A DNA stretch of 64,000 nt from Candidatus Eiseniibacteriota bacterium (GCA_965224245.1 OZ245046.1:4352001-4416000), one strand, 5' to 3'. Shown: positions 42,640 through 52,854, counted from the first letter of the stretch. The notes: a model not told the origin generated them from the letters alone. Made by a program: numbers and translations.

Positions 42640-42965
42640 GTGGATCCTCGACCTCGGTTGAAACGAGCCGTTGCATGCACGGACCCCCGGGCGCGGCTCC
42701 GGTGATCGTGGACGCGATCGAGCCCGACGCCGCGCCCGTGCTCCGCAGCGGGTCCGGGTCGGCGCCCGCCGACCCACTCGCCCCCCGCTCTCGTCCGATG
42801 ATATACTCGGCCGCGTGCGAATGCGCGGCGTGCCTCTCACGTGCATGCGACGCGCGCCGGGATCCGTGCGTTCGCTGGCCGTCTTCCCCCACGGCGCGAC
42901 GACTTTCGCGAGTCGACACACTCACAAAACCGCCACCGGTCGGCCGGCAGCCGGAAGGGTATGTC

Positions 42966-45284
42966 ATGTCTCCACGTCCGCACGCGTGCTTCGCCGTCCG
43001 CCGGCCGTCCCGTCTCCGGGCCGTGCTCCCCGTCCTCGTCACCGGCCTCGCCACGACGCACGCGCTGGCCGGCGCCGGAGATCCGGTGGTCACGGTCCAC
43101 TTTCCGAACGGCGGCGAGTCCCTGAACGGCGGCGACACCACCAACATCGTGTGGACCGCGACCGACGACACGGCGGTGACGCTGGTCAACGTGTACTACC
43201 GTGACGGTGCGGCCGAGGAATGGACCCCCATTGCCCTCGGGCTGGCCGACTCCGGCGCGCTCCCGTGGTCCGTGCACAACACGCCGACCTCCGAGGCACG
43301 CGTGCGCGTGGTCGCCGAGGATCCGTTCGGCAACACGGGCGAGGATCAGAGCGACACCGACTTCACGATCAACGCCCAGACGGGATCTCGCGTGTCGACG
43401 ACGCTTCGCGACTTCGAGCAGCCGGGCACGCAACCGTTCGAGGCGGGCTTTCTGCATCCGAACTCGAACTGTCTCTCGTGCCACAGCGGATACGCCGACC
43501 ACTCCCCTGGAAGCAGCTACCTGGGCTCGATGATGGCCAACGCGGCCCGCGATCCGCTCTTCTACGCGGCGCTCGCCATCGCCGAGCAGGACGCCGCGTC
43601 GTCGGGCGACCTGTGCATCCGCTGTCACTCGCCCTATGCCTGGGTCAACGGCCGCAGCAATCCCACCGACGCCGGTGCGTTCACGACCGAGGATCGCGAG
43701 GGCATCACGTGTCACTTCTGCCACAAGCTCGTCGATCCGGTGTACACGGGCGAGAACCCCGCCGACGACGTCGCGGTGCTGGACGCCCTCGACGAGGTCC
43801 CGACCGAGTTCGGGTCCGGGCGCTACGTCGTCGACCCCGAGGACCGACGCCGCGGCCCGTACTCGAGCGTCTCGCCGCCGCATCAGTGGCGATACTCGCC
43901 GTTCCACAACTCGAGCGACCTCTGCGCGACGTGCCACGACGTCTCCAATCCCGCGTTCGAGCGCGTGGGCCCGATGGACTACGCGCTCGGGAGCATCGAC
44001 GCGCCGCCCGCCGACTTCGGCGCCGGGCACCTGTTCCCGGTCGAGCGCACGTACAGCGAGTGGCTGGCGTCGGACTTCGTGTCCGGTGTGTTCGCGCCCG
44101 AGTTCGCCGGCAACCGTCCCGACGGCATCGTGTCGACCTGTCAGGACTGCCACATGGCCGACGTGCTGGGTAAGGGCTGTGGCTTCGAGTCCGCTCCCGA
44201 GCGCTCGGATCTGGGCGTGCACGACCTGACCGGCGGCAACACGTGGATGCCGCAGGTGATCAAGAAGGCATTCGCGAGCGAGATCGTTCCCGAGTACATG
44301 GACGCCGCCACCCTGCGCGCGCAGGCGATGCTCGAGAAGGCGGCGGTGCTCTCGATCGCCATCACGGCCGAGGCCGATTCGTTCCGCGCGCACGTGACGG
44401 TGACCAACCGCTCCGGTCATCGGCTGCCCACCGGGTACCCCGAGGGACGCCGGATGTGGGTGAATCTCGCCGCGTACGACGGCGTCGGCACCAAGGTGTA
44501 CGAGTCGGGCGCCTACGACGTCGCGACCGCCGAGCTCACGTACGACTCCGACCTGGCCATCTACGAGGCCGAGCTGGGTCTGTCGCCGTCGCTCGCCGCG
44601 TCGCTGGGTCTGCCGGCGGGTCCATCGTTCCATTTCGTGCTCAACGACACGCTCTACAAGGACACGCGCATCCCGCCGCTCGGATTCACGAACGCCGCCT
44701 TCGAGGACTTCGGGATGCCACCGGTCGATCCCGATCACGAGGGTCCCGGCCCTCGGTACGAGGACGGCCAGAACTGGGACACGCCCACCTACGCGCTGCC
44801 GGCCTCCGCCGCCGAGGTGATCGCCACGCTCTACTATCAGACCACGTCCAAGGAATACGTCGAGTTCCTGCGCGACGAGAACGTGACCAGCTCGGCCGGG
44901 TCGGACATGTACGACCTGTGGGTGGCCAATGGTCGCGCGGCCCCCGTCGTGATGGCCGCCGACACGACGTCCACCGACGTCATCGGCGTGCCCGGCCACG
45001 ACGTCGCCGCGGGGATCGGCCTCGACGCGATCGCGAACCCGTTCCGGGGTCCTCTGGCGCTCCGGCTGGATCTCGCCGCGAGCGCCGACGTCTCGCTCGA
45101 GGTGTACGACGTTCACGGCCGGCGGATCGCGAGGGAGCGCTTCGGCGAGATCGGCGGCGGCGCGCACCGTCTGGTCTGGGACGGCACGACCGCCGGCGGA
45201 CACGACGCCGGCCCCGGCGTGTACTTCGCGCGTGTCCGCGTCGGTGACCGCGTTCTCTCCCGGCGAGCCGTGCGACTCGACTGA
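42966..45284 (+). CDS. Secreted pentaheme c-type cytochrome with N-terminal Ig-like domain and FlgD-Ig/T9SS-CTD-like tail
   Basis: CLSCH, CIRCH, CHFCH, CATCH, CQDCH; PNGGE Ig domain; GHRLPTGYPEGRRMW; NPF..YDVHGRRI..WDG..PGVYF. Confidence 0.88.
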   Translation: MSPRPHACFAVRRPSRLRAVLPVLVTGLATTHALAGAGDPVVTVHFPNGGESLNGGDTTNIVWTATDDTAVTLVNVYYRDGAAEEWTPIALGLADSGALPWSVHNTPTSEARVRVVAEDPFGNTGEDQSDTDFTINAQTGSRVSTTLRDFEQPGTQPFEAGFLHPNSNCLSCHSGYADHSPGSSYLGSMMANAARDPLFYAALAIAEQDAASSGDLCIRCHSPYAWVNGRSNPTDAGAFTTEDREGITCHFCHKLVDPVYTGENPADDVAVLDALDEVPTEFGSGRYVVDPEDRRRGPYSSVSPPHQWRYSPFHNSSDLCATCHDVSNPAFERVGPMDYALGSIDAPPADFGAGHLFPVERTYSEWLASDFVSGVFAPEFAGNRPDGIVSTCQDCHMADVLGKGCGFESAPERSDLGVHDLTGGNTWMPQVIKKAFASEIVPEYMDAATLRAQAMLEKAAVLSIAITAEADSFRAHVTVTNRSGHRLPTGYPEGRRMWVNLAAYDGVGTKVYESGAYDVATAELTYDSDLAIYEAELGLSPSLAASLGLPAGPSFHFVLNDTLYKDTRIPPLGFTNAAFEDFGMPPVDPDHEGPGPRYEDGQNWDTPTYALPASAAEVIATLYYQTTSKEYVEFLRDENVTSSAGSDMYDLWVANGRAAPVVMAADTTSTDVIGVPGHDVAAGIGLDAIANPFRGPLALRLDLAASADVSLEVYDVHGRRIARERFGEIGGGAHRLVWDGTTAGGHDAGPGVYFARVRVGDRVLSRRAVRLD

Positions 45285-46428: not shown

Positions 46429-47010
46429 ATGTCGCGAACGCTGCTTCTCGCCTCGACGTCCCGCTATCGGCGGGAGCTCATGGACCGACTCGGCGTCGCC
46501 TACCAGGCGATCGCCCCGAGCTACGTGGAGGCGCCGATGCCCGGAAGCGCCCCCGACGTCGTCACGTCGCACCATGCGCTCGAGAAGGCCCTCAGCGTCG
46601 CACGGGAGCACCCCGACGCGTACGTGATCGGGTCGGATCAGGTCGCGTACTTCGAGGGAGAGGCGCTGGGAAAGCCCGGCACCCCGGAGCGGGCTCGAGC
46701 CCAGCTCCGGCGCCTGAGCGGGCGCGAGCACGTGCTCGTCACGTCGGTGGCTCTCGTTCGTCTCTCCGACGGACACACGCGGACGCACGTCGATCAGACG
46801 ACGATCGGGATTCGTCCGCTCGACGACGCGGAGATCGCACGGTACGTGGAGCGCGACGACCCGAGCGACTGCACCGGCTCGTACAAGTCCGAGGGGCTCG
46901 GGGTCACGCTGCTCGACCATCAGACGGGGCGTGATCCGTCCGCCGTGGTCGGGCTGCCGTTGATGGCGGTGGCGTCGATGCTGCGCGAGGTCGGCTTCGA
47001 CGTGCCGTGA
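46429..47010 (+). CDS. maf: Maf family nucleoside triphosphate pyrophosphatase (YceF-like)
   Basis: LLLASTSRYRREL, KA, VIGSDQV, GKP, GSYKSEGLG, VGLPL. Confidence 0.92.
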   Translation: MSRTLLLASTSRYRRELMDRLGVAYQAIAPSYVEAPMPGSAPDVVTSHHALEKALSVAREHPDAYVIGSDQVAYFEGEALGKPGTPERARAQLRRLSGREHVLVTSVALVRLSDGHTRTHVDQTTIGIRPLDDAEIARYVERDDPSDCTGSYKSEGLGVTLLDHQTGRDPSAVVGLPLMAVASMLREVGFDVP

Positions 47011-47043: not shown

Positions 47044-47847
47044 CTATGCGAGCAGCGACGGGATCGACGCGACCGACTTCACGACGGCATCGGGCGTGAC
47101 GCACGCCTCCGTCGCGTCGCCGGGACGGAACTTCCCGGTCCGCACGAGGACGCCGCGCATGCCGGCCGCCTGCGCCCCCCCGACGTCCGAGACGACGTCG
47201 TCACCGACCATCACCGCCTCGGTCGCCTCGACCCCGGCGTCGGCCAGGGCAAGGCGAAAGAAGTCCTCCGACGGCTTCCCCAGGACGAGTGCGCGTGTGC
47301 CCGTGGCGTACTCCAGCGCGGCGACGAAGGCACCGATGTCGATGCGAGGACCGTCGGGCTCCTGCCAGTAGCGACCCTTGTGGAGCGCGACCACCTCGGC
47401 ACCATCGAGAACGGTCCGGAACAGCTCGTTGATCAGGTCGTAGGTCCACGATCCTCCGATGTCGCCGATCACGACGACGTCCGCCGGCGATCGCGGCGTC
47501 GCGACGATCGCGCCGGCGAACTCCGATTGCACGTCGTCGGCCACCACGAGTCGGACCCGATCGCCCGATCTCGCCGACACGTGGAGCACGCCGGCGGACA
47601 GCGCGCTCAGGACCTCGTGTGGCTCGATCGACAGCCCCAGCGAGCGTAGCCGTCGGTGCAGGCCTTCTCGGCTCACGCGCGTGGTGTTCGTGACGAAGCG
47701 AAGCGTCAGGCCGCGGTCCCGGAGCGAGGCGATCGTCTCGTTGCCGCCCGGGACGAGCGCATCCCCGACGTAGAACACTCCGTCCAGATCGAAGAAGACG
47801 GCGCGGACGTTCGAGAGGGAAGCCGTCGCGTCAGGCATGGGGCTCAT
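47044..47847 (-). CDS. HAD-IIA hydrolase, TIGR01458/LHPP-like
   Basis: FDLDGV, FVTNTT, ALHKGRYW, ALEYATG, GKPS..FF, MVGDDVVSDVGGAQAAGMRGVLVRTGKF. Confidence 0.92.
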   Translation of the reverse strand: MSPMPDATASLSNVRAVFFDLDGVFYVGDALVPGGNETIASLRDRGLTLRFVTNTTRVSREGLHRRLRSLGLSIEPHEVLSALSAGVLHVSARSGDRVRLVVADDVQSEFAGAIVATPRSPADVVVIGDIGGSWTYDLINELFRTVLDGAEVVALHKGRYWQEPDGPRIDIGAFVAALEYATGTRALVLGKPSEDFFRLALADAGVEATEAVMVGDDVVSDVGGAQAAGMRGVLVRTGKFRPGDATEACVTPDAVVKSVASIPSLLA

Positions 47848-47909: not shown

Positions 47910-49541
47910 CTATTGCCCCGGTGCGTTGTCGGAGTCCTCCGCCCTCCTGCTGGACGGAACGAAGGCGAGGACGAGCCGCGCCAGGGCAAATCCGATGACG
48001 AAACCCACGACGCCACCCTGGGCTCCACCGGGCACCGCACCGCCCGTCGTCCAGTTCAGAACGACGAACACACCTCCGCCCACGAAACCGGCGGCCATCG
48101 CGATCTTGTTCTTGTCGATCGACTCCCGTCGAGCCGTCTCGATGACCGGACTTTCGCTCCTCTCGGCGCTACCCAGGAGCCCGTACTGCCTCCCCACACG
48201 GAGCGCCAGTACCAGCCAGATGACGACGAGGATGACGTTGAAGATCGCGAATCCCCGCGTCCCGAGCCCCAGAAACGTCGTGCCCAGAAACACCGTGAGG
48301 GCCTGGAGCGCGTCCCCGGCCCGCACGAAGATCGTGTCGATCGCCTGCTTGGCCATGTACTTCTGCTCACGCGTGGTGGGCAGGAAGAGGACGCCCCTGA
48401 GCGTGTTCTGAAGCGAGTAGTCGGTCGCGTTCTCGGCCGTCTTGATCCACCGGACGTAGGCCAGCACCGGGACCACCGCCGCCATCAGGTAGCCGCCGAG
48501 TGCGATGACGGGGAGGATCATCAACGCCACGCGGACGCCGAGGTACTTGAGTACGCGCGAGACGAGGAACAGCTGGATGACCACGCCGGCGATGTTCACC
48601 CACTTGAAGAACCCCGAGTAGAAGCGTCCGATCCACTCCCCCTGGGAGAGCCCGCCTGCGGTCCCGTCCGCGACCGCGGCCGAGGCGGCGTCGGACACGA
48701 GGCGACTCAGGATGTACTCACCGGTGGTGTTGACCCAGTTCAGCACCAGGATCAGAAGCGCGATCATCAGAAGGTACCGCTCGCCGATCACGAGCTGGAA
48801 CGCGCGCAGCGGTCCCCCGGTCGTGATCGGCTCGTCCTCCCGGGTGGCGACCGTTCCCGTGCCCTCGCGGCGGCGCTCGCGCGCGTCCACGACGTTCGTG
48901 ATCCCCATCGCGATCGTCAGGAGCACCGCCGACAGGATCAGGAGCTGGTAGACGTTCAGCGGCGCGACGGCGACGCCGGCCAGCGGCACCGTGAACCCGT
49001 CCAGGAGCTTCTCGGTGATCGCGCTTCCCAGGACGGCGCCGATGGACGCGCCGAAACCCACGATGGCGAACAGGCGCTTTCCCTGATCCTCGGTGTAGAC
49101 GTCGTTCGCGAAGGCCCAGAACTGCGCGATGACCATCAGGTTGAAGATGCCGACCCAGAGGTAGAACACGACGCCGAGCGGCAGCCCGGTCCGCGACAGC
49201 ACGAAAAACGCGACCAGACACGCGGCGAAGAAGACCGTGACCACGTTGATGAGGCGCCGGCGGGACATCTTCCGCGCCAGCATGCCGTACAACGGAACCA
49301 CCACGAGCAGGAGCAATCCCTGGAAGAAGGACATGTACGCCTTCAGCTCGGGGCCGCCCTCGGTCGCGAGGATCAGCGCCTCGCGCACGGGCTTGATGAT
49401 GTAGTAGCACGTCAGCAGCAGGAAGACGTTCAGCATCAAGAGCAGCGCCGTCCCGGGCTCGCCCGGGCGCACGTCCGCGAAGAGGCTCAGGAATCGCTCG
49501 AGGGGACCCTTGCGACCGGCGTGCGCGCTGTCGGACGTCAT
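47910..49541 (-). CDS. NTT/Npt1 (TLC, ATP/ADP translocase family) nucleotide transporter
   Basis: YYIIKPVREALIL, FYLWVGIFNLMVIAQFWAFANDVY..QGKRLF, KTAENATDYSLQNT, KYMAKQAIDTIFVRAGD; about 12 TM plus two extra C-terminal TMs; no HEAT/cNMP extension. Confidence 0.85.
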   Translation of the reverse strand: MTSDSAHAGRKGPLERFLSLFADVRPGEPGTALLLMLNVFLLLTCYYIIKPVREALILATEGGPELKAYMSFFQGLLLLVVVPLYGMLARKMSRRRLINVVTVFFAACLVAFFVLSRTGLPLGVVFYLWVGIFNLMVIAQFWAFANDVYTEDQGKRLFAIVGFGASIGAVLGSAITEKLLDGFTVPLAGVAVAPLNVYQLLILSAVLLTIAMGITNVVDARERRREGTGTVATREDEPITTGGPLRAFQLVIGERYLLMIALLILVLNWVNTTGEYILSRLVSDAASAAVADGTAGGLSQGEWIGRFYSGFFKWVNIAGVVIQLFLVSRVLKYLGVRVALMILPVIALGGYLMAAVVPVLAYVRWIKTAENATDYSLQNTLRGVLFLPTTREQKYMAKQAIDTIFVRAGDALQALTVFLGTTFLGLGTRGFAIFNVILVVIWLVLALRVGRQYGLLGSAERSESPVIETARRESIDKNKIAMAAGFVGGGVFVVLNWTTGGAVPGGAQGGVVGFVIGFALARLVLAFVPSSRRAEDSDNAPGQ

Positions 49542-49563
49542 GCGTGCTCCCTTCCGAGGGACG

Positions 49564-51354
49564 TCAGCGATCGATGGCGACCACTCGGCCCGACGCGCGC
49601 GAGACGTAGGCGACGACCGATCCGCTCCAGCCGTCGCCGCGGTCCACCTGGTAGTCGAGGGCCACGAACGGACGGTCGTCGGCCGGAGCGGCGTCGATGG
49701 CGTGTCCGATGCGCGGGTCGGCGAGGTCCACCCTCAGCTCGGAGAGATCGAACCAGCGCGACCACGACGCCGCGTTGCGGTCGGCGTTCACGGCCGCCAC
49801 CCGGACGCGGTACCGCGTGGTCTCGCCGTCCGCGAGGCCACGTTCGACGGCGAGGTCGTGTCCGACCACCTCCGAGCCGTGAACCTGGAAGAACTCGAGC
49901 GGGGGGATCTTCGCGAACCAGGTGCGCGCGATCGCGTCTCGCCGCTCTCCGATCACCCGAGCCAGGTACCGGGTGGCCTCGGGATTCTGGTAGTGGGCCT
50001 CGCGGCACGCGGCCATGATGTGCGCGTCGGTGAAGGCCGAGATGATCTTGGCCGCCCAGTACGCGTCGTCCGTGGTCTGGTTTGCGAACGCGGGATTGGG
50101 CTGCAGCGGCTTGTACTCGCGCGGGTCGTACGGATCGCTCACGTACGCGCCCACCTCGGCGAGCCCCTCCGGTGGATGCACGCGCCGCCAGGCGTCCTCG
50201 TGGATGCCCAGAGCGAGGATCCGTCCGCCGACGGGCATCACGTCAACTGTGTACTCGTAGCCCCAGCGCTGGGTCGGGCCGTGCGCGCCCGTCCCCAGGG
50301 TGCTGGCGAAGTCGATCAGATGGTGCCGGATGAACCGACGCCCATCCTCCTCGACGAGCATGTCGAGCGAGTTGTGCTGCTTGGTGTCGAAGTGCGCGAT
50401 CCACGCCGCGAACGTGTAGAGGCCCCGGAGCTCCCGGCGATGCTCGTGATCGATGCGATCGTTGGGGTCGTCATCGCGCCGACCGATGTAGTCGAACGGA
50501 CCCACCGGTCGGCCGTCCAGGAACTTGCTGGCGATGGCGCGCCAGGAACCTCCGTCGCTGTGCACGTCGGCCAGGATGGCGTCGATGTCGGCCACCGTCA
50601 TCGGTCGCTTCTTGCCGTCCTTCTCGCTGATCTTCACGTCGTCACCGAGGCGCAGCTGATCCCGCCGGAAGTACACGATGTTGTCGTCGGGGACGAAGTA
50701 ACCCGCGGCGTACAGGAGACGCGCCGAGATCACGCCCGCGCCGCTCGCCATCGACGGATGGTCGGGGGGATCGAACTTGATCAGATACAGCTCGCCGTTC
50801 CCGTCGCGGACCGTGAAGCCCGGCGTGACACCCTCGGTCTTCGCGCGCACGATCGTCCACGGCTCATGGGTCGATGGACCCCGCGAGCCGTCCCCGGGGC
50901 CGGCGGCGACCTCCTCGGGCGTCATCGGGAACAGTCCGATGCGATTGGTGAACCAGGACGAGTTCGGGACCTCGTCGAGCGCGTTCACGTTCGCCGCGTG
51001 GGGCACGTGGTCCCCGCCGAACAGCACGCCGACGTGACGGATCAGGCGGCTCGGCTTCGTCCACCGCCCGAACGGGCGCACGACCGATTCTCGAGGACCA
51101 TCCCAAAGAAGATTGGGCTCGCGCTCCTCGGGCGGCTCGATGTCGTGACGATCGTCGTCGTACCAGACGATCGGCGCGTCCACGAGCGGGGCCTCGGCGC
51201 GAGCGACCCGAGACTCGAGAACAACGACCGTGCCCGCCACGGCCAGTGCGAGTACCGATGCGGCGCCGGCGCCGCTTGCCCCCGCCAGAGCGGCCCTCAC
51301 CGCCCGCCCCGCGCGCCGCGCCGCGTCAGCGCGACGGGACCGGATTGCGACCAT
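49564..51354 (-). CDS. Exported hypothetical protein with atypical protein-kinase-like motifs
   Basis: Signal-like N-terminus (..ARA/EAP); KTEGVTPGF, YLIKFD, HFDTKQHN, LIDFAS in kinase order. Start uncertain (51354 or GTG 51300). Confidence 0.7.
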   Translation of the reverse strand: MVAIRSRRADAARRAGRAVRAALAGASGAGAASVLALAVAGTVVVLESRVARAEAPLVDAPIVWYDDDRHDIEPPEEREPNLLWDGPRESVVRPFGRWTKPSRLIRHVGVLFGGDHVPHAANVNALDEVPNSSWFTNRIGLFPMTPEEVAAGPGDGSRGPSTHEPWTIVRAKTEGVTPGFTVRDGNGELYLIKFDPPDHPSMASGAGVISARLLYAAGYFVPDDNIVYFRRDQLRLGDDVKISEKDGKKRPMTVADIDAILADVHSDGGSWRAIASKFLDGRPVGPFDYIGRRDDDPNDRIDHEHRRELRGLYTFAAWIAHFDTKQHNSLDMLVEEDGRRFIRHHLIDFASTLGTGAHGPTQRWGYEYTVDVMPVGGRILALGIHEDAWRRVHPPEGLAEVGAYVSDPYDPREYKPLQPNPAFANQTTDDAYWAAKIISAFTDAHIMAACREAHYQNPEATRYLARVIGERRDAIARTWFAKIPPLEFFQVHGSEVVGHDLAVERGLADGETTRYRVRVAAVNADRNAASWSRWFDLSELRVDLADPRIGHAIDAAPADDRPFVALDYQVDRGDGWSGSVVAYVSRASGRVVAIDR

Positions 51355-52771
51355 GAAAGAGCCCGCCCTTCGCGAACTGGAAGACCTGATCCGCCCGGAT
51401 CCGGAACACGGTGTCGTCCTCGCTCTTCGCGTACTCGATGCGCCCCACGAAGCCCCACCGTCCGACCAGGCGCAGCCCTCCGCCGTATGACGTGGTCGCG
51501 TTGTCGGCGCTGATCTCCTCGTTGTCGCCGAAGACCTGTCCGACGTCGGTAAAGAGGTAGGCGTCGAGCCCGATGTCGTCGGCGTGGGAGGCCGCCCAGA
51601 CCGGCCAGCGATACTCGGCGGTGAACGCCGTCATGCCGCGATCGCGCCAGCGGTAGTCCTCATAGCCACGCAGGAGATCGGGGTCGTCGTTCGTCATCAG
51701 ACGCTGGAACGGCACGCGGCTCGTGCCGCCACCGGCCACGGGATCGATCCACGAGTAGTACGCGCGGAAAGCGAGGACTCGCTTGTCCCGCCACAGGCGC
51801 ACGAACTGCTGGAGCTCCACGCGATACGACCAGAAGTTCAGATCCGGAAGCTCGGACCCGGTCTCGGTGAAGTACGACGCCGTGACCCGGCGGGACCCCG
51901 ACGACACGGGACGGCCGGTCTCGGTGGTGGTGTCGTGGATGAGCGAGGCACCGGCGGTCACGCCGTCCGAACGCGCGCCGTACCCGAACGGCACGTCGTA
52001 CACCTCCGGCAGCGTCGGCGAGTCCTCACGGCGTGGACCCCGCGCGCCGACCGTCGTGTAGCGGACGTCCAGCTCGGAGCTGACCGAGTGCGTGAGCTCC
52101 CGCTCCAGCGTCGCCCCCACCCATGACATCTCGCGGCGGAAGAACGACTCCTCCGCCGACTCGGTGCGGTCGGTCGGTCCGAAGCCGAAGTAGCGCGCGT
52201 TCGGCGTCATCCGGTAGCCGGCACCGACCTGCAGCGCGGTGGGGCGGCCGAGGCCCAGATAGATGCCGAGGTTCACCTTGTGGTGTCCGTTCACCGACGT
52301 CATCCCACCGAGCCGAAAGCGATTGTCGGGTCCGAAGAACGCGTCGTGCACGAGCGTGGCGCCGCCACCGAAGCCGGTCAGGCCACCCGCCGAGAAGCTC
52401 ACGGTCGCGCCGTACGGAAGCTCACGGGGGCCGACCAGCTCGGAGATCCGGTAGACCACGTTGGACTCGTCGAGTGCGATGACGCCGCTGCCGACCGCGC
52501 TGGAGAACAGGCGCAACGGCGCGCCGATGACGTGGTACGGCACGTCCACGGCCGCCTGCCAGGCCGGCGCCCCGGGCTGCTCGAGGGGGGTTCGGACCGA
52601 GTCGTGCTCGGCCGGGATCGGCCCCCAGTAGCTCTCGCCGACTCCGTCGGTGTTGTCGGCGTGCGCGGCCGTCGTGGCCGCGATCATGAACGCGACCACC
52701 GACAGCGCGGTCGGGAGCGCTCCGCTACCGCGCGAACGTCGTCGTACCTCGCGGATCGGACAAACGGGCAT
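51326..52771 (-). CDS. Omp85/BamA-TamA family outer-membrane beta-barrel without obvious POTRA domains
   Basis: Signal peptide (AHA/D), RYFGFG, alternating beta strands, L6-type LLRGY..RWRD, AEYRWP, FTDVGQVF, SYGGGLR. Confidence 0.8.
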   Translation of the reverse strand: MPVCPIREVRRRSRGSGALPTALSVVAFMIAATTAAHADNTDGVGESYWGPIPAEHDSVRTPLEQPGAPAWQAAVDVPYHVIGAPLRLFSSAVGSGVIALDESNVVYRISELVGPRELPYGATVSFSAGGLTGFGGGATLVHDAFFGPDNRFRLGGMTSVNGHHKVNLGIYLGLGRPTALQVGAGYRMTPNARYFGFGPTDRTESAEESFFRREMSWVGATLERELTHSVSSELDVRYTTVGARGPRREDSPTLPEVYDVPFGYGARSDGVTAGASLIHDTTTETGRPVSSGSRRVTASYFTETGSELPDLNFWSYRVELQQFVRLWRDKRVLAFRAYYSWIDPVAGGGTSRVPFQRLMTNDDPDLLRGYEDYRWRDRGMTAFTAEYRWPVWAASHADDIGLDAYLFTDVGQVFGDNEEISADNATTSYGGGLRLVGRWGFVGRIEYAKSEDDTVFRIRADQVFQFAKGGLFHGRNPVPSR

Positions 52772-52825: not shown

Positions 52826-52854
52826 AGTGTTTCCGACGCCCCCCGTGATGTCAA
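52826..52854 (-). promoter_or_regulatory. Putative sigma70 promoter for the Omp85-kinase-NTT operon
   Basis: Minus strand TTGACA-N17-AACACT, about 55 nt upstream of ATG 52771. Confidence 0.55.

Follow-up and report, generated by a model that had tools for sequence, protein, structure and literature searches.

A candidate envelope module pairing a POTRA-less Omp85 barrel and an exported kinase-fold protein with a divergent NTT-family carrier

Can a kinase work in the periplasm, and where would its phosphate donor come from? The periplasm is treated as free of ATP, and envelope processes are explained by energy coupling at the inner membrane or by ATP-independent chemistry. The question is raised by a locus in a 64,000-nucleotide stretch of DNA (referred to as the window) from Candidatus Eiseniibacteriota bacterium (GCA_965224245.1, OZ245046.1:4352001-4416000). 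Here, three minus-strand open reading frames (ORFs) at 47910-52771 encode an Omp85-type barrel, a kinase-fold protein and a carrier resembling the NTT/TLC nucleotide transporters. A model that had been given the DNA alone (the sequence-only reading) proposed that the carrier exports ATP and takes back ADP to fuel a periplasmic or surface kinase working with, or displayed by, the barrel. We followed up this proposal computationally. Our results make it highly probable that a barrel-docked periplasmic kinase module is real. To the whole three-part envelope module, with a nucleotide-exporting NTT, we assign a probability of roughly 0.45. The three genes proved to be packed as first described, with the barrel and kinase genes overlapping and the NTT gene following after 22 nt (49542-49563). 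Coordinates of all features are collected in Table 1.

We initially analyzed the protein encoded by the middle gene. No Pfam, NCBIfam or PDB sequence match was obtained (PDB at E ≤10), either with the single sequence or with a 23-sequence profile. The 23 homologues themselves matched no Pfam family at E ≤1, save for scattered single weak matches. Among them, membership of the Fam20, CotH, HipA or PI3_PI4 kinase families in Pfam was not found, and the one weak match was to HipA_2 (E = 0.064). Of the 8000 candidates scored, 2402 reached E ≤0.001, so that the family comprises at least this many proteins; it falls into 2849 clusters at 50% identity. Among the 120 matches listed, identities were mostly 54 to 64%, and the names of the homologues were nothing more specific than "hypothetical protein."

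The structure of this protein, as modeled with AlphaFold2 (AF2; predicted local distance difference test [pLDDT], 78.5; predicted template modeling score, 0.80), is that of an atypical kinase. When the model was compared with 48,161 representative PDB chains using VIA-align, the top 14 matches were all atypical kinases (Z 9.1-13.2). The best match was CtkA (Z 13.2; root mean square deviation [rmsd], 4.3; 229 aligned). Further matches were Fam20 (Z 13.0, 12.9 and 11.6), PI4KII-alpha (12.2), CotH (11.5), actin-fragmin kinase (11.1), HipA (10.7-9.1) and MavQ (10.4). Foldseek weakly returned the same kinase families (CtkA, E = 3e-4; Fam20C, E = 6e-4). A protein atlas gave unnamed clusters only, and its nearest named ones, Fam20C (0.81) and HipA_2 (0.79), are leads only. 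Beyond the kinase-like domain, the C-terminal part of the model (residues 484-590) matched FN3 domains.

Lys, HxDx[KR]xxN and DFG motifs stand in kinase order in the protein. K193, D195, H321/D323/K325/N328 and D348-F were invariant in 23 aligned homologues. To cover the wider family, we used 135 representatives of 500 aa or more, taken from the 50%-identity clusters; the motifs were kept in about 95% of these diverse relatives (K193 in 128, D195 in 130). This pattern is probably that of an active phosphotransferase. Both the kinase-order motifs and the kinase fold claimed by the sequence-only reading were found in the middle protein. The LDEVPNSSWFTNRIGLFPM block (WFTNRIG) is its most conserved non-catalytic motif. 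A charged block before the catalytic loop (R293, D296, D299, H303, R306, R307 and R310; 50443-50496 on the minus strand for residues 287-304, and onward to residue 310) is conserved at least as well as the catalytic residues, each position being kept in at least 97% of the 135 representatives. This block could be a substrate or metal site.

The same protein is predicted to be exported, as the sequence-only reading had it. The N-termini of its homologues are equivalent in the alignment. By hydropathy, a hydrophobic N-terminal segment is present here and in 130 of the 135 representatives, and a lipobox-like motif in 44 of the 135. The clades thus appear to differ, some having a Sec signal peptide and others a lipoprotein signal. 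Since two alternative export signals occur across clades, an extracytoplasmic location of the kinase-fold protein is strongly argued. Tat export was considered and rejected, as the lone SRR of the window protein is unconserved in the homologues and lies far from the hydrophobic core.

The gene upstream was described by the sequence-only reading as an Omp85-type barrel with an RGY loop and no obvious POTRA domains, and our analysis agrees. Its product matched Pfam Omp85 (PF01103; E = 6e-10; 39.6 bits, cut-off 24) over residues 240-509 of the long ORF, and it matched NCBIfam NF047779 with 68 bits, below the subfamily cut-off of 200. The longest ORF extends to 52900; we chose the ATG at 52771 as the start because a normal signal peptide results. 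The AF2 model, built from a 32-row alignment from which one homologue with an internal stop in its ORF (L018) was excluded, had a pLDDT of 80.8 and contained 16 strands by DSSP. The strands are preceded by the signal peptide, a long helix (residues 70-102) and a short helix (105-113). Foldseek returned BamA/TamA barrels as the best matches (E ~1e-12). We detected no POTRA domain by Pfam, and only helices precede the 16 strands in the model. Because POTRA is absent by profile and in the model, we assign the barrel to the noNterm (POTRA-less) kind of Omp85. In the close clade, a SYWGPIP motif is conserved a few residues past the predicted signal-peptide cleavage site, and a C-terminal tail follows the last strand.

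We modeled the barrel (residues 40-481) together with the kinase-fold protein (residues 56-596), a prediction that the sequence-only reading had called for, using separate alignments and three runs. The median interaction prediction score from aligned errors (ipSAE), which is a model confidence and not a measurement, was 0.82; none of three controls scored above 0.01. In the calibration of the method, which is approximate here given the custom alignments, 58 of 80 solved complexes and 2 of 110 mismatched pairs attained that mark. At least 94% of contacts agreed between runs, and the partner pLDDT was at least 87. Recall of a known complex is unlikely, since the kinase-fold partner has no solved relative by sequence. 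On the barrel side, the predicted interface comprises Y48/W49 of SYWGPIP, the N-terminal helix and the periplasmic turns at about residues 328/331 and 387-406. On the kinase side, it comprises residues 61-69, the WFTNRIG block (126-144), the FN3 domain and a loop (356-390) that the monomer model leaves disordered. The model thus brings the best-conserved non-catalytic motifs of the two partners together on the periplasmic side, which supports the idea that the kinase-fold protein binds the barrel there. This placement favors a kinase "working with" the barrel and disfavors the other half of the earlier wording, a kinase "displayed by" it.

To follow the locus across species, we scanned neighborhoods in one genome per species and found at least 567 stretches with kinase relatives. 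We took the best 80 loci, with flanks of up to 8 kb. They span Eisenbacteria, Krumholzibacteriota, Gemmatimonadota, Latescibacterota, Zixiibacteriota, Acidobacteriota, Ignavibacteria and others. The adjacency of barrel and kinase was nearly universal: a barrel match lay directly upstream of the kinase gene, on the same strand, in 79 of the 80 loci, and the exception (L091) begins 13 nt before the kinase match. Linkage to the NTT was strong. An ortholog of the carrier was found less than 400 nt 3' of the kinase gene in 32 loci, 1.7-3.5 kb 3' on the same strand in 7 (plus 2 weak matches) and elsewhere in the locus in 1 (plus 3 weak matches). All-against-all clustering of the ORFs placed the kinase in 80 loci, the barrel in 78 and the NTT family in 52, the last count taking in paralogues of 690-1100 aa with TLC and HEAT matches. 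Other conserved neighbors of the module were rejected, as the remaining clusters covered 18 loci or fewer. The largest of these (18 loci) resembles antisense shadow ORFs, and the largest annotated one is an HtrA-like protease (12/80).

Kinase and carrier also co-occurred across genomes. Among 41 relatives, 13 genomes carried the kinase, 13 an NTT ortholog (at least 47% identity) and 12 both; in the remaining kinase genome (G002), two distant NTT paralogues lie at 4-8 kb from the kinase. We then used 153 genomes of the phylum with a completeness of at least 85%. The kinase was searched by alignment (E ≤0.001) and the NTT by a single protein (E ≤1e-40, a threshold chosen in the light of the 41 relatives to exclude NTT-HEAT paralogues). 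Counted by hand, both were present in 67 genomes (66 of 152 without the unpublished genome G072), neither in 70, and the NTT ortholog only in 3 (G021, G129 and G149). In one family (f9), the kinase was found in 24 of 61 genomes and the NTT ortholog in 25, with 24 shared. The NTT ortholog co-occurs with the kinase also where the two are unlinked (G020, G026, G005 and G019). The co-occurrence is a strong pattern, not a probability. The computational checks named by the sequence-only reading thus all turned out in its favor: the three families are conserved as neighbors, the middle protein has export signals and a kinase fold, and the predicted complex stands clear of its controls.

Several loci carry additional genes close to the module. 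The HtrA/DegP-like protease gene (Trypsin_2 and PDZ) lies just 5' of the barrel gene in its 12 loci (L031 5092-6513 [+], L040 5096-6529 [+] and 10 further loci). Long NTT paralogues (690-1100 aa) are found within a few kilobases of the barrel-kinase pair in many loci, such as L024 5010-7280 (-), L027 13031-15313 (-), L046 11303-14608 (-), L076 10784-13609 (+) and others. They have TLC matches and, in 3 of 4 tested, HEAT matches, and they are present also in loci without the short NTT (L024 and L052). In a distant clade (L071 and L010), a calcineurin-like metallophosphoesterase gene stands between the kinase and NTT genes (L071 9518-10858 [+], with a lipobox; L010 2-1336 [-]), which suggests an extracytoplasmic kinase/phosphatase pair. 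A metallophosphoesterase partner in the window genome was rejected, as only a weak partial match far away was found (E = 2e-5). Gemmatimonadota loci have a gene for a membrane-anchored Hanks-type Ser/Thr kinase, on the opposite strand, between the atypical kinase and the NTT (L027 9738-11588 [-]).

The carrier scored above the cut-off of Pfam TLC (PF03219; E = 2.5e-13; 50.1 bits, cut-off 21), with the best stretch at profile positions 151-297 of 491, and it also matched MFS_1. Using phmmer, it matched the solved "ADP,ATP carrier protein 1" chains 9j3n/9j3j (E = 1e-6 to 4e-6). Common to these proteins are the motifs FW(A/G)FAN and KR(L/F)(F/Y)..G.GA and the later block Y(S/A)L...P...(Q/T)K..(A/G)K.AID. 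Close homologues are automatically named "AAA family ATP:ADP antiporter," "Npt1/Npt2 family nucleotide transporter" or "MFS transporter." A crude hydropathy scan gave overlapping hydrophobic segments, consistent with about 11-12 helices and two extra C-terminal ones. The latter are Gly-rich and lie at about residues 480-528, in an extension beyond the homologues, most of which have 440-470 aa and align to no more than 80-86% of the query. By these comparisons, the carrier appears to belong to the NTT superfamily outside its characterized clade; the stand-alone NTT transporter of the sequence-only reading thus stands, as a divergent one. According to the main text of Major et al. (2017; PMC5381601), NTT genes occur in free-living bacteria, including Gemmatimonadetes, Latescibacteria and Acidobacteria, with no function assigned, and the same is said there of a wide NTT-HEAT clade. 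The words kinase, export and periplasm are absent from that main text.

According to our model, the POTRA-less Omp85 barrel would lie in the outer membrane, and the Sec-exported atypical kinase-fold enzyme would dock on its periplasmic face. The SYWGPIP/helix segment of the barrel would contact the WFTNRIG motif, a loop and the FN3-like domain of the kinase. In the inner membrane, the NTT exchanger would move a cytoplasmic nucleoside triphosphate, most likely ATP, out to the periplasm and bring the diphosphate back. The exported nucleotide would be the phosphate donor for the kinase in a compartment otherwise without one, and the kinase would act on the inner side of the outer membrane by phosphorylating what is most likely a protein, else a lipid or glycan. 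The exchanger would work as a supplier because consumption of ATP in the periplasm creates gradients, and an exchanger runs down these. An NTT would have been recruited in most lineages, the simplest reason being supply of a nucleotide phosphate donor together with return of the diphosphate. We hold it possible, at slightly less than even odds, that the NTT supplies the nucleotide of the module. More tentative is a wider reading, in which many free-living diderms (Eisenbacteria, Krumholzibacteria, Gemmatimonadota, Zixibacteria, Latescibacteria, Acidobacteriota and Ignavibacteria) would deliver ATP to the periplasm via NTT carriers to power a barrel-docked kinase. Outer-membrane phosphorylation would be reversible in the clades with an exported phosphatase, and ATP delivery would be the long-missing function of NTT genes in free-living bacteria.

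Several observations weigh against a nucleotide-exporting module. The NTT ortholog was absent from 24 of the 80 loci despite at least 2 kb of downstream sequence (and from 11 more with a shorter flank). Similarly, 13 of the 153 genomes (13 of the 80 kinase-positive ones) had the kinase only, 11 of them in one family (f16). The NTT is thus not obligatory, being dispensable for many kinase-family members. The two-by-two table also overstates the association, because related genomes are not independent. Against TIGR00769, the NTP/NDP exchange transporter model, the carrier scored 51.4 bits, with a cut-off of 387.2, and PDB carriers matched only at E ~1e-6, as would be expected of a distant NTT. 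According to the main text of Major et al. (PMC5381601), the substrate of PamNTT4 is NAD, and in assays S. negevensis NTT4 transported no nucleotide. Because substrates vary in the NTT family, ATP as the substrate and the direction of transport are assumptions. As for the kinase, its motifs were assigned to kinase elements from their order and from the fold rather than from a residue-level superposition; no alpha-C glutamate partner was identified for K193, and the window copy reads DFA in place of DFG. The docking, too, is known through a model confidence. Finally, outer membranes pass small solutes, and therefore exported ATP could leak or be hydrolyzed.

The most probable of the alternative readings is a barrel-kinase envelope module without ATP export. 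The carrier might import or exchange some other solute, be it NAD, a different nucleotide or something that the module produces, or the enzyme might use a donor already found outside the cytoplasm, such as polyphosphate or, like LpxT, a lipid-linked pyrophosphate. The diversity of NTT substrates and the members that carry no nucleotide (main text of PMC5381601) agree with this, as do the distance of the carrier from the characterized clade and the kinases without an NTT ortholog (24/80 loci and 13/80 genomes). Moreover, in the account drawn from PMC2229476, the donor when lipid A is phosphorylated in the periplasm is undecaprenyl pyrophosphate rather than ATP. However, the fold and the Lys/HxDx[KR]xxN/DFG set are those of nucleotide-dependent phosphotransferases. 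Besides the barrel, only the NTT family is widely linked to the kinase, and it co-occurs where unlinked, for which nucleotide supply is the simplest explanation. We therefore consider a module without ATP export unlikely. The position of the kinase bears on another possibility, that the barrel is a dedicated, two-partner-like translocator moving the kinase to the surface or the medium, where it would act externally like CtkA and CotH. Adjacent genes for a barrel and an exported partner do resemble TpsB/TpsA, the closest folds include secreted kinases (CtkA, Fam20 and CotH), and many members of the kinase family are lipoproteins, which some systems expose at the surface. Conversely, the barrel has no POTRA domains, the partner has no two-partner secretion (TPS) domain or Pfam match, and the model sets the folded kinase on the periplasmic turns, not in or beyond the lumen. 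An inner-membrane nucleotide carrier would be useless to a surface or secreted kinase, yet it is tightly linked. Secretion or display is, in our view, improbable.

The predicted site under the barrel is also the place of POTRA domains or BamD-like partners, which would suit a pseudokinase scaffold, that is, a dead kinase-fold protein serving as a periplasmic barrel subunit that replaces POTRA or lipoprotein partners. The failure to identify an alpha-C Glu and the DFA of the window copy point the same way. Retention of the catalytic Asp, the Asn, the DFG Asp and the beta3 Lys in about 95% of the 135 representatives would be unusual for pseudokinases, however, and a scaffold leaves the NTT linkage unexplained, making this reading a shade less probable still than secretion. 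The slimmest chance goes to nucleotide scavenging, in which external nucleotides or nucleic-acid fragments would enter via the barrel, be processed in the periplasm by the kinase-fold protein and, in some clades, a metallophosphoesterase, and be imported as nucleotides by the NTT. It would account for the metallophosphoesterase lipoprotein in the cluster of the distant clade, the periplasmic nucleotidases UshA and CpdB being of the metallophosphoesterase superfamily. Characterized NTTs are indeed importers in parasites and plastids, according to the main text of PMC5381601. Nevertheless, Omp85 barrels are insertases or translocators and not known nutrient pores, the fold relatives of the kinase are protein, lipid and glycan kinases rather than nucleotide kinases, the kinase step would still require a donor, and the hosts are free-living with large genomes (6.9 Mb here).

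Our full-text literature searches, which extended to periplasmic ATP, exported kinases, Fam20/CotH-like secreted kinases of bacteria and NTT export, turned up neither an Omp85-kinase-NTT system nor a kinase fed by ATP in the periplasm. The parts belong to known superfamilies; we rate the system as a kind not described before, known here from computation alone. The proposed module resembles the secretory pathway of Fam20C (Golgi casein kinase), where a signal-peptide atypical kinase acts outside the cytosol and an exchanger feeds ATP to the compartment. AXER/SLC35B1 is reportedly the ATP/ADP exchange carrier that feeds the lumen of the eukaryotic secretory pathway. Fam20 structures are, as noted, among the best fold matches of the bacterial kinase. 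Unlike the Fam20C system, the module shows no detected sequence similarity to it (no PF06702 match), has a carrier of the NTT/MFS type and not SLC35, pairs its kinase with an Omp85 barrel and occupies a compartment that the outer membrane leaves open to the medium. Other bacterial kinases active outside the cytoplasm are CtkA of H. pylori and CotH of Bacillus. In contrast to these, the window family, which has no sequence-level membership with either, adds an N-terminal docking region and an FN3-like domain. Neither CtkA nor CotH is known to have an Omp85 barrel or a nucleotide carrier as a partner.

The carrier shares its TLC match above the cut-off, and the motifs common with 9j3n/9j3j, with the NTT/TLC proteins of Chlamydiae, Rickettsiales and plastids. 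It differs from them in falling far under the TIGR00769 cut-off, in its free-living 6.9-Mb host and in its proposed direction, which is export. The NTT-HEAT paralogues near the module in many loci recall the free-living NTT-HEAT clade of the main text of PMC5381601. The barrel has the 16 strands, the loop-6 RG(Y/F) and the lack of POTRA described for noNterm Omp85 proteins in the account drawn from Heinz and Lithgow (2014; PMC4104836), where a role in membrane-protein biogenesis is speculated. What sets the window barrel apart is that its N-terminal docking segment is conserved and that a kinase-fold gene is its obligate partner. An Omp85 barrel gene also lies beside that of an exported partner in two-partner secretion (TpsB/TpsA) and BamA-lipoprotein complexes, and BamA/TamA are the best fold matches; here, by contrast, POTRA and the TPS domain are absent and the partner is predicted to be folded on the periplasmic face. 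LpxT phosphorylates an envelope target outside the cytoplasm, as would the module, but is an inner-membrane enzyme with undecaprenyl pyrophosphate as the donor, going by the account drawn from PMC2229476, whereas the kinase fold here implies a nucleotide donor.

If true, the module would overturn the picture of an ATP-free periplasm across much of the bacterial tree. It would delineate a large family of kinases, with more than 2800 clusters at 50% identity, no Pfam model and no representative in the profile libraries searched, and would provide a bacterial parallel to Fam20C-type phosphorylation in the secretory pathway. For the NTT genes of free-living bacteria, whose function the main text of PMC5381601 leaves open, it would offer a function that can be tested. 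The module makes the question of periplasmic ATP testable by ordinary assays of transport, kinase activity, localization and co-purification.

Table 1. Features of the barrel-kinase-NTT locus, in window coordinates
Feature	Position	Strand	Detail or basis
Promoter-like TTGACA-N17-AACACT, 5' of barrel gene	52826..52854	-	Sequence read; -35 perfect, -10 3/6 vs TATAAT
Barrel gene (POTRA-less, noNterm-type Omp85)	51326..52771	-	481 aa from ATG at 52771
Signal peptide of barrel (predicted)			Cleavage ~AHA/D after residue 38, then N-terminal docking segment
Predicted kinase-docking segment, barrel residues 40-106 (SYWGPIP with Y48, W49, plus long helix)	52454..52654	-	Close-clade conservation; complex model
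16-stranded beta-barrel domain, residues 120-459	51395..52414	-	DSSP of AF2 model
Loop-6 RGY (R368-G369-Y370; LRGY)	51662..51670	-	R368 and G369 invariant, 32 aligned homologues
Barrel/kinase gene overlap, 29 nt	51326..51354	-	ORF coordinates
Kinase-fold protein gene, product predicted to be exported	49564..51354	-	596 aa
Signal peptide region of kinase, residues 1-54	51193..51354	-	Hydropathy; core ~33-45, then ARA/EAP cleavage-like site
Kinase residues 126-144 (LDEVPNSSWFTNRIGLFPM)	50923..50979	-	Invariant columns; W134 96%, R138 99% of 135
Atypical protein-kinase-like domain, residues ~150-485	49900..50907	-	VIA-align fold matches
Catalytic-loop-like HFDTKQHN (H321, D323, K325, N328)	50371..50394	-	D323 130/135, N328 128/135, K/R325 116/135
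DFG-like motif, here D348-F349-A350 (family consensus DFG)	50305..50313	-	D348 131/135, F349 118/135, G350 104/135
FN3/Ig-like beta-sandwich C-terminal domain, residues 486-596	49567..49899	-	VIA-align FN3, Z 7-8, rmsd 2.4-2.9, ~82-90 residues
Divergent NTT/TLC-family (MFS-type) carrier gene	47910..49541	-	543 aa
Carrier C-terminal extension, residues 460-543, non-conserved	47913..48164	-	Hydropathy; homologue coverage

The G+C content of the window is about 69%. The overlap of the barrel and kinase genes likely leads to translational coupling. The same 29-nt offset, with an in-frame ATG/GTG, was found in 41 of the 73 related loci in which both ORFs are complete. The overlap carries conserved residues in both frames, the barrel tail reading ...GRNP(V/I)P.R and the kinase start M.AIR.R. 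The promoter that the sequence-only reading placed 5' of the barrel gene is present as a sequence but unsupported as a feature, because its -10 element agrees at only three of six positions and a consensus promoter scan does not list it. The sole site listed by the scan in this region is on the plus strand (0.3 expected). Two terminator-like sites were found in the region, against 1.8 expected by chance, and both lie inside genes.

The genes flanking the trio are unrelated housekeeping genes: upstream and divergent, MoeA and a second molybdopterin-biosynthesis gene; downstream, a NagD-type HAD phosphatase, Maf and MscS. The NagD-type gene (47044-47847, minus strand) lies 62 nt 3' of the NTT gene on the same strand. 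We rejected it as a fourth member, as it has no signal peptide and matches in 0 of the 80 related loci; it is probably outside the module. The Maf nucleotide pyrophosphatase gene is next (46429-47010, plus strand). Farther along, a gene at 42675-45284 (plus strand) encodes an 869-aa protein with several CxxCH heme-binding motifs, a C-terminal FlgD Ig-like domain and weak MtrC/MtrF-like and cytochrome c3 matches, which may be an exported multiheme cytochrome.

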